Source: an uncultured Bacteroidales bacterium
Lineage (GTDB): Bacteria > Bacteroidota > Bacteroidia > Bacteroidales > UBA10428
NCBI GenBank assembly: GCA_963717995.1
Contig: CAVQXX010000006.1
Location: 102,357-166,356, forward strand
Direction of reading: 5' to 3'
Length of the DNA stretch: 64,000 nucleotides
The position numbers were made by a program, and so were the translations under genes. The notes under the pieces were generated by a model. It did no database searches, was not told the origin of the DNA, and saw nothing but the letters and a program-made list of their open reading frames with translations. How positions within the stretch are numbered: the stretch's first letter is position 1; each line of letters opens with the position of its first letter. Positions 58,178 through 64,000 of the stretch are shown piece by piece.

Positions 58178-58442
58178 AATTTATGTTTTGATATAGTTAT
58201 TTTCAGTTTATATCATATACAATCTTAGTAAATGACTCCTGCTTCATGATCTGATATTGGATGTAATTCCAAAAGTAATTAGAATATTGAATCGAATACA
58301 CCATCGCCTTCATTTTGTCAAAATCTCCTTGACTTTGCCTTCATATAGTCGTAACTTTCAACATATAATTGACTTTCCGGTATTTAATTCCAAAAATTAC
58401 GCACTGGTCTCATCCTTATTTATTTTAAAAAAGGAGGCGATT

Positions 58443-58736
58443 ATGAATACATACATTATTTTAATGAAAATGACAGGGCAGGGAATAAAAAGTGTGAAAG
58501 AAGCACCGCAGAGAGCTGAAGCTGGCATTAAAGCCTTTGAAAAGATGGGCGGGAAAGTGCTTGGTTTTTATGCAACCCTGGGAGAATATGATTATGTAAG
58601 TATCGGCGAGGCACCCAATGATGAGGTCGCCACTGCTTTCTCTCTTGCATTAGGTTCCTTGGGAAATGTGAGGACACTAAGTCTCAGGGCATTCACACTC
58701 AAGGAATTCACAGAAATAGTAAAAAAAGTGCCGTAA
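58443..58736 (+). CDS. GYD domain protein
   Basis: 97 aa, MNTYIILMKMTGQGIKSVKEAP...FYATLGEYDYVSIGEAPNDE. AGGAGG (58432-58437) lies 5 nt upstream of the ATG. Confidence 0.8.
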   Translation: MNTYIILMKMTGQGIKSVKEAPQRAEAGIKAFEKMGGKVLGFYATLGEYDYVSIGEAPNDEVATAFSLALGSLGNVRTLSLRAFTLKEFTEIVKKVP

Positions 58737-58760
58737 TCACACGGCATTTATTATCAGTTT
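58729..58760 (+). terminator. possible intrinsic terminator after the GYD gene
   Basis: TGCCGT-AATCAC-ACGGCA (58729-58746), followed by TTTATTATCAGTTTT. The stem is short, and the stop codon sits in the loop. Confidence 0.4.
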
Positions 58761-58966
58761 TAAAATTGGATGGGCCAGCGCGTTATCATTTGTAATAATG
58801 AATTTAGAATTCAATAGTAGATTTCTGTCTACACAACCTGAATATAGACGGACCGGATTTCTTTAACAGTTTTTCTCGCCATATTTAACGCATTTTGTAT
58901 ATTTAGTGTCTGTTAAGTTAGTTTTTCTGTTTGCTTAGCGTTTAATCTCTAAAAAATGGAGGCAAC

Positions 58967-60601
58967 ATGAGTGAAAATATGTCAATTAGTCCCAGCGGAG
59001 AAAAATTTCCTTTGCCAACACCAAATGAATACAAGACAGAATTCTTAAGCCTTAAAAAGCGTATTGATGAAGAACGGGCCAGAAATCGTGAAATTGTTGT
59101 GGTTATAGGTATCGGTTTTGTTGGTGCGGTTATGGCCGCTATCGTAGCTGATACTGTTGATAAAAGTGGTCAACCCTCAAAATTTGTTATTGGAATGCAG
59201 CGCCCGAGCGTGCGAAGTTTTTGGAAGATCCCTTTACTCAATCGCGGAGTTTCTCCGGTAAAAGCGGAAGACCCTGAAGTGGATCCAATGATTGCACGTT
59301 GTGTTAATGAGAAGAAAACCTTAATCGCAACTTATACGTATGAAGTCCTTAAACTTGCTGATATTGTAGTAGTTGATGTGCAGTGTGATTATATTAAAGA
59401 GGATTTGGGCAATGTTCGCAACGGCCAAACCGATATGGCTGCTCTGGAGGCTTCCATTAGTGTAATCGCCGAGCGCATTCCGCCAGGCACCCTCGTTTTG
59501 ATCGAAACTACTGTTGCTCCCGGAACAACTGAACAAGTGGCCTACCCGATAATGAAAAAAATATTTAAAAAGCGGGGGATTGAATCCGATCCATTGTTGG
59601 CCCACAGCTACGAGAGAGTAATGCCCGGCCGTGATTATGTTGCCAGTATACGTGATTTTTGGCGCGTTTGCAGCGGCATCAATGAAGAAGCAAAAGTTCG
59701 GGTGGTAAAATTTTTGAATGAAGTACTGAATACGGCAAAATATCCCTTGACGGTTATGGATAGGCCTATTGAGTCGGAGACAGCCAAGATTGTTGAAAAC
59801 AGTTACCGGGCCACCATTCTTGCTTTTCTGGATGAATGGAGTTTATATGCGGAGCGTAATGGCGTGGATCTGGTTAAGGTAATTAAAGCAATTAAGGTAC
59901 GCCCCACGCACAGCAATATTATTTTCCCGGGACCGGGAATCGGCGGGTATTGCCTGCCGAAGGACGGAGGCCTGGGTGTATGGGCTTATAAACATATCCT
60001 TGGCTTTGAGGATGATATTTTTAAAATTACACCCATGGCCATTGATATAAATGATACACGGGGTTTGCATGTCGGACAGCTTACCCGTGATGCATTGCGG
60101 AATATGGGCAAACAGATTGCCGCAGCTGAAATTTTGATATTGGGTGCAGCCTATCGCGAAGATGTGGGTGATACCCGTTACAGTGGTTCAGAAATTGTTA
60201 TTCGAAAACTTGCCGAAATGGGTGCTGAGATCAGGGTGCATGATCCTTACGTAGAACATTGGTGGGAATTTGAACAACAGGATACCTATCCGGCTACAGG
60301 ACAAAGCAAAGCGCGATTTTTCCGCAATCAGGAAAAATTAATGGATATGCATATTGAACAGGATTTAAAGAAATCATTAAAAGATGCAGAAGCAGTGATC
60401 TTTGCGGTACGCCATGAAGCATATCTCAATCTGGACCCGGATGAAGTAGTAGGAGCAATCGGCAAACCTGCTGCAATCATTGATTGTTTCGGAGTTCTGA
60501 CGGACGATAATATCCGGCGTTATTTTCAGCTTGGCTGTGAAGTTAAAGGATTAGGTCGGGGACATATTCAACGAATTAAAGATGAAATTCGGAAAGCATA
60601 A
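58967..60601 (+). CDS. nucleotide-sugar (UDP-glucose/GDP-mannose family) dehydrogenase, long form
   Basis: NAD fold VVIGIGFVGAVMAAIVAD, catalytic block PGPGIGGYCLPKD, C-terminal UDP-binding block ILGAAYREDVGDTRYS. GGAGG lies 4 nt upstream of the ATG. Confidence 0.85.
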   Translation: MSENMSISPSGEKFPLPTPNEYKTEFLSLKKRIDEERARNREIVVVIGIGFVGAVMAAIVADTVDKSGQPSKFVIGMQRPSVRSFWKIPLLNRGVSPVKAEDPEVDPMIARCVNEKKTLIATYTYEVLKLADIVVVDVQCDYIKEDLGNVRNGQTDMAALEASISVIAERIPPGTLVLIETTVAPGTTEQVAYPIMKKIFKKRGIESDPLLAHSYERVMPGRDYVASIRDFWRVCSGINEEAKVRVVKFLNEVLNTAKYPLTVMDRPIESETAKIVENSYRATILAFLDEWSLYAERNGVDLVKVIKAIKVRPTHSNIIFPGPGIGGYCLPKDGGLGVWAYKHILGFEDDIFKITPMAIDINDTRGLHVGQLTRDALRNMGKQIAAAEILILGAAYREDVGDTRYSGSEIVIRKLAEMGAEIRVHDPYVEHWWEFEQQDTYPATGQSKARFFRNQEKLMDMHIEQDLKKSLKDAEAVIFAVRHEAYLNLDPDEVVGAIGKPAAIIDCFGVLTDDNIRRYFQLGCEVKGLGRGHIQRIKDEIRKA

Positions 60602-60658: not shown

Positions 60659-62701
60659 CTACACCGGATTGAACCATGCCCTCTTGTTGATCTCGTTCCG
60701 CCATGCATATTCAATGATCCCCTGGTGACCGACCCGTTGTTTCGGACCCACATTCTGAAAGCCATGGCTTTTTTGCAGCTTTTCCCCCCTGACGCCGGGA
60801 CTGCTGATACATCCGCCTCCTGTAAATGCCCAGTAATGATAGAATGGGATGGAAGTCTTTAACGACTCCCAGTTATAATTGTACAGGCAATCGAAGCCCC
60901 AGCATTCATTTACTTTGGCAAGCAATTGATTTTTACCTCCCAGGATTCTCCTTAGTACACTGCCGCCGGCAGAATGCCCGGCAAGAATGATCCGTTGCGG
61001 TTCGGCGCCGGCAGTCAGATAATTTTTCGATTTGAGTTCCTTAAAGCATTCGGTCACATAGTTGTCGAACCCGTTCGCTTTTCCAAAAACAATAATGCTT
61101 TGCTGTGGATCAGAGGTAAGGGTAGGTGCCAGCAATACGGCATTCCTGTGGCTTTCGGCAAAACATGCCCGTATATTGGAATAATTCTTCCAATAGTATT
61201 CAATGCCGTTTATTTTGTTCCCATAGTTGTACAACCCGTGAAAATACACGATCAGATCAACCTTATCCTCCTTCCTGTATCCCGCAGGTATGAAAATGCC
61301 TGTTTTTAATGTTCGCTTTTCAACAGCACTGGTATTTAAATAATCCGTGATTCCCTGGGTCGGTGCAATATCAAATTCGCTACTGAACAAAGGTTCAGTG
61401 ATCTGATCCTCATAAGCCTCTTCATCCAGATACTGTTCTGTCTCTGCAGAGTCAAAACTCATTTCCGTATCAGCGTCTGAATCGGCTTCATATTGCATGC
61501 CTGCCTCGTCCACCATATCTGTTTCATCTATTGTTTCTGCATCAGCTTCCAGTGTTTCCGACATTTCTGCTTCGTCCGTTATTTCCTGCTCGTCCACCAT
61601 TTCTGACTCTTCCGGGGACTGTACGGATGATTTGGTGCCTGTTGTCGCAGGTCTAACCGGCGCTGTTTCGGACATTATAAGCGGTTTCATGCGGTGCCAT
61701 GTATTGGGGCCAATAATACCATCCGCATCCCTTTCTGAAAAACCCTGTTGCCGCTGGAATGCGGCTACTGCTTCGGCAAAAGATTCTTCTCCCAGACTTA
61801 TCCCGGATTGTCCTGTTACTTTCAACAGCAAATCATTGATTTCAATGACATATCGATCCCAGCCCAGTTCAAGGGAATACTTGCGGTTTAGCTGAATCGC
61901 CTTTGACCAATCCCTGGGTCCCGACGGTGCATCTGTTGTAACCGCCGTGGATAAGGCCTGTCCTGACCCTGTTAAGCCATACTTTTGCAGAAACAGCAAA
62001 TACGAGGTTGGGTTCAGAACTCCTTTCGGTGCTGAGCCTCCTACCATAAAGCGCTGGTTGGCCTTTGTACCTTTTATGTAAGTCTCGAAGTGCAGCATGC
62101 TCAAAACATACATTTTCCCGACGAACCCTATTACCTGCCCGGCCTTGACCCGATCACCGGTTTTTAAATGATTGGCCTTTAAGGAATCCTCATGGACTTC
62201 GCCATAATTGATCACCAGATTGTTGTGTTCAACCAGCAATGCATAGGTGCTGCGGTAGAAATGATAAAATGCGACAATGGTTCCATCCTCGCAGGCGACC
62301 ACCGGATCTTTATCATTTGCCCAAAGATCAATGCCCACATGATAGCGTCCTCCATCGCTGCGATGTGCCAGAAATCTTCTGCCACCCATACCGACAATGG
62401 TTTTATCGGTTCTGGTGAAAGCCACTTCTCTGCCTCTTGAATGAGATGTTATTACCGGCCAGTAACTTCCTGCTGCAGGAAGCGGGGCAAAAGGCACCGG
62501 GTTCTTTTCCGGAACCGGCAGGGATTTTGATACGGTTTCATCCTGAGCAGATTCTCTTTGATAGAAACCAATATCCCTGTCTTTTTCATGGCTTACAACT
62601 ACTTCCGGGTCCAAAAAGGGACTGACAACCAATACTTCATTATTCGTACTCCAGGCAACTTCCCTTTCAGGAACGACAATATCAATAAATGGTGATTTCA
62701 T
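60659..62701 (-). CDS. multidomain protein: M23 peptidase, PG_binding_1, acidic linker, alpha/beta hydrolase (GHSAG)
   Basis: M23 motifs RYHVGIDLWA (HxxxD) and SMLHFETY. PG-binding block AVAAFQRQQGFSERDADGIIGPNTW. Asp/Glu-rich stretch of about 80 aa. C-terminal VYFHG...IILAGHSAGGS nucleophile elbow. No signal peptide is visible. Confidence 0.8.
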   Translation of the reverse strand: MKSPFIDIVVPEREVAWSTNNEVLVVSPFLDPEVVVSHEKDRDIGFYQRESAQDETVSKSLPVPEKNPVPFAPLPAAGSYWPVITSHSRGREVAFTRTDKTIVGMGGRRFLAHRSDGGRYHVGIDLWANDKDPVVACEDGTIVAFYHFYRSTYALLVEHNNLVINYGEVHEDSLKANHLKTGDRVKAGQVIGFVGKMYVLSMLHFETYIKGTKANQRFMVGGSAPKGVLNPTSYLLFLQKYGLTGSGQALSTAVTTDAPSGPRDWSKAIQLNRKYSLELGWDRYVIEINDLLLKVTGQSGISLGEESFAEAVAAFQRQQGFSERDADGIIGPNTWHRMKPLIMSETAPVRPATTGTKSSVQSPEESEMVDEQEITDEAEMSETLEADAETIDETDMVDEAGMQYEADSDADTEMSFDSAETEQYLDEEAYEDQITEPLFSSEFDIAPTQGITDYLNTSAVEKRTLKTGIFIPAGYRKEDKVDLIVYFHGLYNYGNKINGIEYYWKNYSNIRACFAESHRNAVLLAPTLTSDPQQSIIVFGKANGFDNYVTECFKELKSKNYLTAGAEPQRIILAGHSAGGSVLRRILGGKNQLLAKVNECWGFDCLYNYNWESLKTSIPFYHYWAFTGGGCISSPGVRGEKLQKSHGFQNVGPKQRVGHQGIIEYAWRNEINKRAWFNPV

Positions 62702-62740: not shown

Positions 62741-64000
62741 TTAATTCATTACCGGCTTTAAAGCGGATCCGTTTTGCTGGACTTTTACAGTGCCGGTTAC
62801 ATTGGCCTCCGGATTCTTGATCTTGTGTCCGGTTGCTTTTTCCCAGTTATTGATTATCAGGAGGAGCTCATTTAATGCCTGCCTGACCGGATCAGTCTGT
62901 GGTAAACCATCTTTCTGACTCTTAATAATGGCAGTTACTCCCGCTTCATTATTCGGGCTGTAATCACCCAGTTCAATTCTTCTTAATAATGTATTCATAG
63001 GGGGAGCAATGTCGAGCAGGCCTTCAGATTTGCTGTGTGCGGGCAATCCCACCCTGTTTCCGATGTTGATAAGTCTTTCACCGGGCGTATTTCCGTTGCA
63101 CCGTAAAAAATTTACTATCGGGGAATCATAGGAGACTACCTCATACAACCAGGACATCATCACCACGGAAGCGTATTCTTCCCTGGAAAGGTTGAAATAC
63201 CGGTAATTATCGAATGTTGTGTCCGTCGTTCTTCTCGACATGAGCATTTCCTGAATTTTCTGAGCCGTATCCACTATGACAAACATGTCGGTGGTATTAG
63301 CTCCTGATGTATTACTGGCATTTGTATAGGCCTGCCATATTTCCGTAAGGAACTTCTCGAATAACAGAATAAAAGGCTGGTTATTATACTCTGCCTTATA
63401 ATAGCTGACCGGATTGTTGGAAACGGCATCACCAAATGCAAGATCCATTCCGAACAACCTGTAATAGGCATGACGCCGGGTTGCGTCCGCGTTTTGCCGG
63501 AAATCGCTTGTAATGTTCCGGTAACTGGTATTCGGCAGATATTTATAAAACAGGTTTTCCGTATTCACCATCCATTGAAAGGCGAGACGGTTTTGACTCT
63601 GGGCTGTTGTGGCTTTATTCAGCTTTTCGTCGTGCATATACATGAAAAGAAGCTTTTCGAAAATTTGCACACACCGCGTGTTCTCTACCAGGTATGCGTA
63701 AATGAGGTGGTATGGAGGAATAAGATTGCTCACATCCAGGCGCTGACCTGCTGGTGGAACAGAACGGAACCGTGAATAATACTCTGTAGGATCTCCCGGC
63801 AAAGGAGGATTCTGGGGTTGCTGATTTACATAAACTCTTCCCGTCACGATGTCAGCCCAGTGTTTCTGGATGGCATTCTCAATAAAGGCCGAATCATCCA
63901 CAGCACAGAATTCCTGTATGGTTTCGATGTTAAAGGAATAATAATTCCCCCTGTTAATTGGGGTAAGTGGCGAAGGAAGTTCCGAAAGTATATTGATGAA
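62741..64000 (-). CDS. large uncharacterised protein, 5' end beyond window
   Basis: The frame stays open past the listed GTG (63901) to the window edge, giving at least 419 codons. It ends 39 nt upstream of the M23-hydrolase gene on the same strand. No family recognised. Confidence 0.6.
   Translation of the reverse strand, partial: FINILSELPSPLTPINRGNYYSFNIETIQEFCAVDDSAFIENAIQKHWADIVTGRVYVNQQPQNPPLPGDPTEYYSRFRSVPPAGQRLDVSNLIPPYHLIYAYLVENTRCVQIFEKLLFMYMHDEKLNKATTAQSQNRLAFQWMVNTENLFYKYLPNTSYRNITSDFRQNADATRRHAYYRLFGMDLAFGDAVSNNPVSYYKAEYNNQPFILLFEKFLTEIWQAYTNASNTSGANTTDMFVIVDTAQKIQEMLMSRRTTDTTFDNYRYFNLSREEYASVVMMSWLYEVVSYDSPIVNFLRCNGNTPGERLINIGNRVGLPAHSKSEGLLDIAPPMNTLLRRIELGDYSPNNEAGVTAIIKSQKDGLPQTDPVRQALNELLLIINNWEKATGHKIKNPEANVTGTVKVQQNGSALKPVMN

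Follow-up and report, generated by a model that had tools for sequence, protein, structure and literature searches.

What is a predicted wall-degrading enzyme for, if nothing in its sequence would carry it out of the cytoplasm? The question is raised by a 680-aa (amino acid) protein of an uncultured Bacteroidales bacterium (Bacteroidota; UBA10428), encoded near the end of the DNA stretch analysed here (the window; 64,000 nucleotides (nt), C6:102357-166356 in a 16-contig, 5.7-Mb assembly); one intact open reading frame (ORF) joins an M23 peptidase to a peptidoglycan (PG)-binding module, an acidic linker and a predicted alpha/beta hydrolase with a Ser-Asp-His triad. The protein is an exchangeable, tag-bearing, leaderless payload of a conserved cassette of orphan genes. 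The original prediction had proposed looking past the window edge for a type VI secretion system (T6SS), a contractile injection system (CIS) or a prophage; found there instead was this cassette, which comprises four orphan proteins (A, B, C and D), a GerE regulator and the target gene itself.

The cassette genes are co-oriented in the order GerE regulator, A, B, C, D, payload; the gaps from A to the payload are 10-39 nt, and the GerE/LuxR regulator gene stands 103 nt ahead of A, just downstream of a terminator-like hairpin that ends the gene of a protein secreted by the type IX secretion system (T9SS). At the locus of the window A is 804 aa, B 421 aa (HETGH), C a coiled coil of 165 aa and D 456 aa; typical sizes are ~805-850 aa for A, ~420 aa for B, a short coiled coil for C and ~425-455 aa for D. 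The target ORF begins 39 nt downstream of gene D, in a slot that is filled by homologues at related loci; its N-terminus (MKSPFIDIV...) is fixed, because an in-frame stop codon lies only 4 codons upstream of the ATG. A description of such a cassette was not found in literature searches.

A profile of B, run against species-representative genomes, gave 49 cassette loci, in Chitinophagaceae, Cytophagales (Dyadobacter, Hymenobacter, Chryseolinea), environmental Bacteroidales, Ignavibacteria/Melioribacteraceae and one 'Dadabacteria' metagenome-assembled genome (MAG). A, B and D were present and syntenic at all loci examined, the GerE regulator and the slot for C were also kept, and clustering of all flanking ORFs gave no other recurrent neighbour (e.g. 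transporter, ATPase). Of 401 genomes in a phylum sample only that of the window has the cassette; within the genus it occurs in 2 of 25 species, at different sites; the copy in the second species (G418) is divergent (A 56%, B 65%, D 70% identical), is followed by another payload and has no GerE gene directly upstream. Judged by this sequence distribution, the cassette is an accessory, horizontally transferred element; its flanks are ordinary glycan-metabolism genes.

The payload slot is the variable part. The homologues of the 680-aa protein (60) share parts of it only, reordered and joined to other domains; contigs of relatives (L004-L006) hold the identical gene order, ending in one or two variable large proteins, and the gene after D encodes 570-2400 aa across loci. 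Pfam census of 41 payloads: PG_binding_1 15, Amidase_2 11, PLDc_2 9, Peptidase_M15_4 7, T6SS_HCP 6, M23 4, OmpA 4, YkuD_2 3, S8 2, VanY 2, SLT 2, DUF2272 1, SH3_3 1. The cell envelope is the target of every named catalytic domain matched; nuclease domains and other toxin domains that act in the cytoplasm gave no match, though much of the sequence of many payloads is unannotated. Turnover is fast: in the closest relative (G013) A and B are 82-88% identical to those of the window, and the payloads are different.

A second feature common to the payloads is an N-terminal tag. Payloads start with M-x-(S/T)-P-F-x-(D/N)-(F/Y), and a second motif (xPF/xPL) follows ~25-29 residues on; protein A carries a corresponding pair (...YETPFAD... 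and ...ESPFSRTYE..., 30-31 residues apart; P11, F12, D14, P42 and F43 invariant) in an N-terminus that is disordered in its AlphaFold2 (AF2) model. A relaxed form of the pattern was matched by 28 of 39 first payloads, 41 of 42 A, none of 43 B and 6 of 43 D, against a background of 18 of 3575 long ORFs of the window's own genome (0.5%; Fisher p about 4e-49). With a stricter pattern (first motif at the start, plus the second motif) the target ORF was the only match in that genome, where neither further tagged proteins nor extra payload copies were found; one look-alike, a TonB-dependent receptor, was ruled out, the motif not being at its real start.

The four-module anatomy given by the original prediction was upheld by profile searches and alignment. 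Peptidase_M23 (PF01551) matched residues 120-215 (E 5e-12; 46.2 bits vs a cut-off of 28.7), with the HVGID and LHFE motifs at residues 121-125 and 203-206, and lysostaphin and LytM were obtained as sequence matches in the PDB; designed 'Cake' repeat proteins, which ranked over the true lysostaphin matches in the search with the M23 segment, were discarded as spurious. Of 52 aligned sequences of the M23 subfamily, all keep the HxxxD residues (H121, D125) and 51 keep the second His of HxH (H204), the remaining one having a gap there; the NYGE motif (E168) is likewise invariant. The first His of HxH is the catalytic His in LytM. In this subfamily that position is Met (M202; SMLHFE in 51/52 sequences), for which NYGE168 may compensate, and the distinct MxH plus NYGE subfamily could represent an altered catalytic arrangement.

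For the PG-binding module the match of the target protein to PG_binding_1 (PF01471; residues 307-338) is sub-threshold (18.4 bits vs a cut-off of 23), and PG_bind_siph of NCBIfam matched at E 1.5e-7; among the payloads it is the most widely shared module, PG_binding_1 being significant in 15/41 with a best E of 1.2e-19. The linker that follows contains 32 D/E vs 1 K/R. No hydrophobic N-terminal segment was found in the 680-aa protein (maximal Kyte-Doolittle average over 19 residues, whole protein: 1.19), no lipobox was seen on inspection and no Por_Secre_tail match was obtained with Pfam; the absence of an export signal, judged by inspection and hydropathy only, thus agrees with the original prediction. 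The effector-like design proposed there was likewise borne out, since homologues reshuffle the same modules with other wall- or lipid-attacking domains, phospholipase D (PLD) and Hcp included.

In the C-terminal domain the GHSAG nucleophile elbow occupies residues 575-579 (nt 60965-60979). In an alignment of 22 sequences H488-G489, S577 and D604 do not vary and conservation of H659 reaches at least 90%, which points to an oxyanion HG motif and a Ser-Asp-His triad. Pfam gave sub-threshold matches only (PGAP1 0.002, Esterase 0.03, Abhydrolase_3); the top PDB profile match was a CE1 feruloyl esterase (E 4.5e-4, N-terminal ~130 profile positions only) and the next a polyhydroxybutyrate (PHB)-depolymerase-family esterase. 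The domain is predicted to be an alpha/beta hydrolase, nearest by sequence to esterases of CE1/PHB-depolymerase type, that probably cleaves ester or lipid bonds.

The core proteins are without recognised relatives. For A, B and D no match was obtained in Pfam, NCBIfam, PHROGs or PADLOC, nor any PDB profile match; D had no match in 50,697 phage records and 72,556 plasmids, and B none in 2.9 million viral contigs. The D family comprises 368 and the A family 248 clusters at 90% identity, all 'hypothetical', without a Pfam domain and without fusions. All 43 B sequences keep H192, E193, H196 and E233, a gluzincin-like HExxH...E arrangement; none of them matched any Pfam family, and hhalign to a DUF4157-type protein of G013 gave a probability of 0.1. 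The AF2 model of D is confident and mostly helical (predicted local distance difference test, pLDDT, 84; predicted TM-score, pTM, 0.85); no significant fold match was found in the PDB (best E 0.36) or BFVD (best E 0.47), and the confidently modelled fold of D would be new. The model of A is mediocre (pLDDT 66, pTM 0.39), with a disordered tag, a helical part and, at 460-640, a beta-rich domain that is well predicted; Foldseek gave no match and no membrane-pore fold was detected. C (L001 4136-4633) begins with four tandem 10-residue units (YDALKKKASS / YEELKKETNA / YEELKKQATA / FEELKKQVGP) and has diverged much faster than the proteins encoded beside it (identity to the G013 copy 67% vs 82-88% for A and B).

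Injection machinery was surveyed in the same genomes. That of the window carries a complete-looking T6SS of subtype iii (T6SSiii) on contig C15, about 831-844 kb (L057 9592-19412), with PAAR, TssB-like, TssC (PF17541, E 5e-224), two to three TssD (PF17642), VgrG and TssF genes; no CIS sheath was found. A T6SSiii of Bacteroidota is missed by PF05943 and PF05638 and seen only by PF17541 and PF17642, which is a trap in screening. Among 18 carrier genomes, several of them MAGs of uncertain completeness, T6SSiii was found in 6, CIS in 6, either in 10 and neither in 8; in the phylum sample TssC was found in 9/300 and a CIS sheath in 54/300. The carriers with neither TssC nor sheath keep intact cassettes; among them are two isolates, Chryseolinea sp. 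H1M3-3 and Hymenobacter wooponensis, and one complete MAG chromosome of 7.1 Mb. In G013, the sheath of the CIS found there matches 7adz/7b5h at E 2e-133 and the tube at E 1e-61; the cluster spans L056 and L007 1-6113 (contig_942, about 2,307,849-2,333,960) and comprises sheath, two tube paralogues, VgrG-like, PAAR-like and gp25-like proteins, large baseplate proteins and AAA+-sized genes, together with a 1255-aa protein bearing a DUF4157-type 'GDxFEQEAD' signature. The flanks of this site are common to G013 and the genome of the window; between them lie ~31 kb including the CIS in the former vs ~10 kb of other genes in the latter. In a further carrier (G002) three identical 193-aa Hcp ORFs of PF05638 type were found on small contigs (C7, C8, C30), and the cassette payload there is also Hcp-bearing.

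We lean, by a little, towards reading the 680-aa protein as the payload of a new, autonomous, tag-addressed module that breaches the cell envelope and is more likely aimed at other bacteria. Autonomy is favoured because genomes that lack injectors altogether still carry intact cassettes, and an outward antibacterial role because the payloads turn over fast, are polyvalent and in some cases carry Hcp modules. Taken separately, other bacteria as the target come close to an even chance, and the producer itself as the target is a clearly weaker prospect. The fuller proposal, held tentatively and with more doubt than belief, is that GerE-A-B-C-D constitute an autonomous new apparatus of delivery or envelope breaching, which would read the (S/T)PF tag on A and payloads and depend on licensing by the HExxH protein, without ATPase, membrane part or injector. 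Within the favoured reading, the double (S/T)PF motif would serve as an address tag, by which the untagged core (D and/or B, with C as scaffold) would recognise A and the payload; B, as a gluzincin-like metallopeptidase, would clip the tag or acidic pro-regions and so release active enzyme; A, with its amphipathic or hydrophobic helices and beta-rich domain, would help the enzymes across a membrane, and these would then attack a cell envelope, destroying its wall and its ester or lipid bonds. The cassette encodes no route out of the producer; lysis of some producers would be the simplest option.

Several observations weigh against this reading. By hydropathy and Pfam no cassette protein has a clear transmembrane segment, an ATPase or a holin (a single borderline hydrophobic stretch is found in A, residues 327-345), so export and access to the wall are left unexplained. 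Immunity genes would be expected for a weapon used among kin, yet they are absent at most loci and here: a small secreted ORF downstream of the payload is missing at 29 of 33 loci. M23 activity is not certain, because the first His of HxH is missing, and curated families give the hydrolase domain no above-threshold match that points to a substrate. What A, B, C and D would do is deduced from their position and motifs and from the tag. Finally, Hcp is carried by 6/41 payloads, T6SSiii or CIS is enriched in carriers (10/18 vs 58/300, p about 0.001; confounded by phylogeny and genome size), and the cassette of G013, the closest relative (88% identity in B), is adjoined by a complete cluster of AlgoCIS/tCIS type, upstream of the GerE gene and divergent from it.

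The last three points bear on an alternative, that the cassette is a loader and payload module for contractile injectors, in which the tag would load A and the payload into or onto T6SSiii in the genome of the window, or an extracellular CIS (eCIS) in relatives, and GerE would be an injector-associated regulator. The CIS adjacency in G013 keeps this explanation alive, and the genome of the window has the same chromosomal slot without a CIS; genomes with Hcp-bearing payloads have a CIS sheath in 4/5 cases vs 2/13 of the others (p 0.02), and the fused payload Hcp is the sole PF05638 Hcp in three genomes. Published eCIS cargos have disordered N-terminal loading sequences specific to each system, GerE adjoins 26% of eCIS loci, the HExxH domain DUF4157 is linked to eCIS toxins, and those of Bacteroidota include a peptidoglycan hydrolase and an L,D-transpeptidase (PMC8213781; bioRxiv 10.64898/2026.05.27.728243). 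Cargo loading in these systems requires an AAA+ ATPase. An acidic N-terminal region with the bipartite motif is indeed shared by the payloads and A, as in such cargos; a sheath/tube cluster in the genome or nearby is lacking in the genome of the window and is credited to G013 only. We nevertheless regard loading into an injector as unlikely: cassettes are intact in the 8 of 18 carriers that lack TssC and sheath; the adjacency is seen at 1 of about 45 loci, and, the site being variable, may reflect an insertion hot spot; the CIS of G013 has its own DUF4157-type cargo without an SPF tag; B is unrelated to DUF4157, and no AAA+ loader is found in the cassette. Of the injected toxin supposed by the original prediction, the presence of a T6SS in the genome holds, but it lies on another contig than the cassette, and no linkage of the target gene to it, or to vgrG, hcp, PAAR or an adaptor gene, was seen.

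Programmed self-lysis, for altruistic release or as abortive infection, is somewhat unlikely as well, if less so. Here, upon induction, tag cutting by B would license A and the payload, A and/or the lipase or PLD domains would breach the inner membrane from within, and the wall hydrolases would lyse the producer, in the manner of holin-endolysin or protease-gasdermin systems built from unrelated parts. It is kept alive by the want of immunity genes and of an exporter; the cassette products are all leaderless, all matched catalytic domains of the payloads degrade the envelope, a protease gene and a dedicated regulator belong to the cassette, and the patchy, horizontal spread is typical of defence islands. 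A, B and D gave no PADLOC matches, however, the flanks are glycan-metabolism genes and not defence islands, no pore fold was detected in A, and the payloads, with their very large size, polyvalence, fast turnover and modules of Hcp and OmpA, are more in keeping with a weapon. Two further readings were rejected. A prophage endolysin or virion-associated lysin, as which the original prediction had also considered the protein, is highly improbable: PHROG endolysin families do match the M23 and PG-binding modules, and the shuffling is endolysin-like, but no phage genes lie within 20 kb of context and the phage, plasmid and viral-contig collections lack the core proteins searched there (D in the first two, B in the third), nor do A, B and D match PHROGs. 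An ordinary wall-remodelling enzyme with accessory domains, of MepM/NlpD/EnvC-like M23 type, has next to no chance; M23 plus PG-binding is common in septal and elongation hydrolases, and weak NCBIfam matches to ShyC and ActS were obtained, but signal peptide, lipobox, LysM and coiled-coil activator architecture are all missing, 23 of the 25 species in the genus and the 400 other genomes of the phylum sample all lack orthologues, and the gene does not stand in a division or cell-wall operon. On this point the original prediction, of a candidate effector, agrees with the patchy distribution.

If the reading as an autonomous envelope-breaching module is compared with known systems, the eCIS cargos (AlgoCIS Cgo1/Cgo2, PVC Pdp1/Pnf, Afp18) resemble the payloads in being leaderless, with a disordered N-terminus common within a system and a variable effector part, and an associated GerE regulator and HExxH protein are also shared. 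Unlike eCIS, the cassette has no sheath, tube, baseplate or AAA+ loader, CIS are missing in the genome of the window and in 12/18 carriers, B is not DUF4157, the tag has defined (S/T)PF motifs, and none of A, B, C and D is known as an eCIS gene. Antibacterial T6SS effectors include Tae amidases, Tle lipases with the PLD-type Tle5, the L,D-transpeptidase-like Tlde1 and Hcp-fused effectors. The payload repertoire (amidase, M23, YkuD-like, PLD, GxSxG hydrolase, Hcp fusion) is similar, and the genome of the window has T6SSiii; in contrast, the gene is not near vgrG, hcp or PAAR, immunity genes are absent, TssC is missing in 12/18 carriers, and the payload Hcp, where there is one, stands at or near the C-terminus and is of PF05638 type, not of the TssD type of Bacteroidota. 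With phage holin-endolysin cassettes and type 10 secretion systems (T10SS), which are domesticated lysis cassettes, the cassette shares signal-less modular wall hydrolases with wall-binding modules, for which a membrane breach is required, but it has no holin, spanin, membrane protein or phage context, and its core proteins are orphan. Class III bacteriocins (lysostaphin, zoocin A, enterolysin A), used to lyse other bacteria, likewise combine an M23 endopeptidase with a wall-targeting domain; they are Sec-secreted Gram-positive pro-enzymes with canonical HxH, whereas the present payload is leaderless, Gram-negative, of MxH type, provided with a second hydrolase and part of a multi-gene cassette.

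Should the module be as proposed, Bacteroidota and Ignavibacteria would have an undescribed route for deploying wall- and membrane-degrading enzymes, a new branch in the catalogue of bacterial weapons or lysis systems, with a simple, portable N-terminal address tag, a plug-in payload slot and, in the payloads, a natural library of multi-domain lytic enzymes. Three to four orphan families would be added, A and D with ~250-370 metagenomic sequence clusters each, and the tag would bear on the recognition of leaderless effectors, for which the poorly understood loading sequence of eCIS cargos is the closest parallel. Cultured carriers exist (Dyadobacter, Niastella, Chryseolinea, Hymenobacter, Paraflavitalea), so the proposal is directly testable. 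The coordinates of the features are collected in Table 1; the window-equivalent coordinate is the L001 coordinate + 60000.

Table 1: Positions of the payload, its modules and the cassette genes, in window coordinates or, beyond the window edge, in window-equivalent coordinates.
Feature	Position	Strand	Remarks
680-aa payload ORF, last cassette gene	60659..62701	(-)	stop codon 60659-60661; ORF listing
Acidic N-terminal tag region, probably disordered	62522..62701	(-)	residues 1-60; MKSPFIDI (nt 62678-62701), VSPFLDP (nt 62606-62626)
M23 metallopeptidase domain	62057..62344	(-)	residues 120-215, Pfam match; homologous module ~61-260; H121, D125, E168, M202, H204
Peptidoglycan-binding module, PG_binding_1-like	61652..61915	(-)	residues 263-350; weak Pfam match, NCBIfam PG_bind_siph
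Asp/Glu-rich linker, probably disordered	61382..61651	(-)	residues 351-440; composition count
Alpha/beta-hydrolase domain	60662..61381	(-)	residues 441-680; H488-G489, S577, D604, H659; 22-sequence alignment
Core gene D, 3' 1260 nt	62741..64000	(-)	gene runs on to 64111, past the window edge
Core gene C	64136-64633	(-)	window-equivalent, outside the window
Core gene B (HExxH)	64659-65924	(-)	window-equivalent, outside the window
Core gene A	65935-68349	(-)	window-equivalent, outside the window
GerE regulator gene	about 68453-68905		window-equivalent, outside the window

A cognate immunity gene, for which the original prediction proposed a search, does not follow the payload here, nor at most other loci: the next gene is that of a convergent dehydrogenase, ending 57 nt away. 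At 4 of the 33 loci a co-directional downstream ORF with crude signal-peptide features was found, one or more of the four being a conserved flanking gene. A clear candidate for a partner of immunity type was seen once only, as a 151-aa ORF with a lipoprotein-like N-terminus (…LTAC…), which follows the payload of the same-genus cassette in G418 after 15 nt (L061 12848-13303).

On the downstream side a GYD-domain gene and a 544-aa dehydrogenase gene (window 58257-60601) separate the payload from a DUF362 gene; at the syntenic site of G013 the two are lacking, and the DUF362 gene stands 260 nt after the payload. By this comparison the GYD-domain and dehydrogenase genes look like a lineage-specific insertion. 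On the upstream side, outside the window and within the variable region, the T9SS-secreted protein encoded just before the cassette is of 961 aa and combines a phosphotriesterase, a CUB and five BACON domains (L001 9063-11948; window-equivalent 69063-71948).

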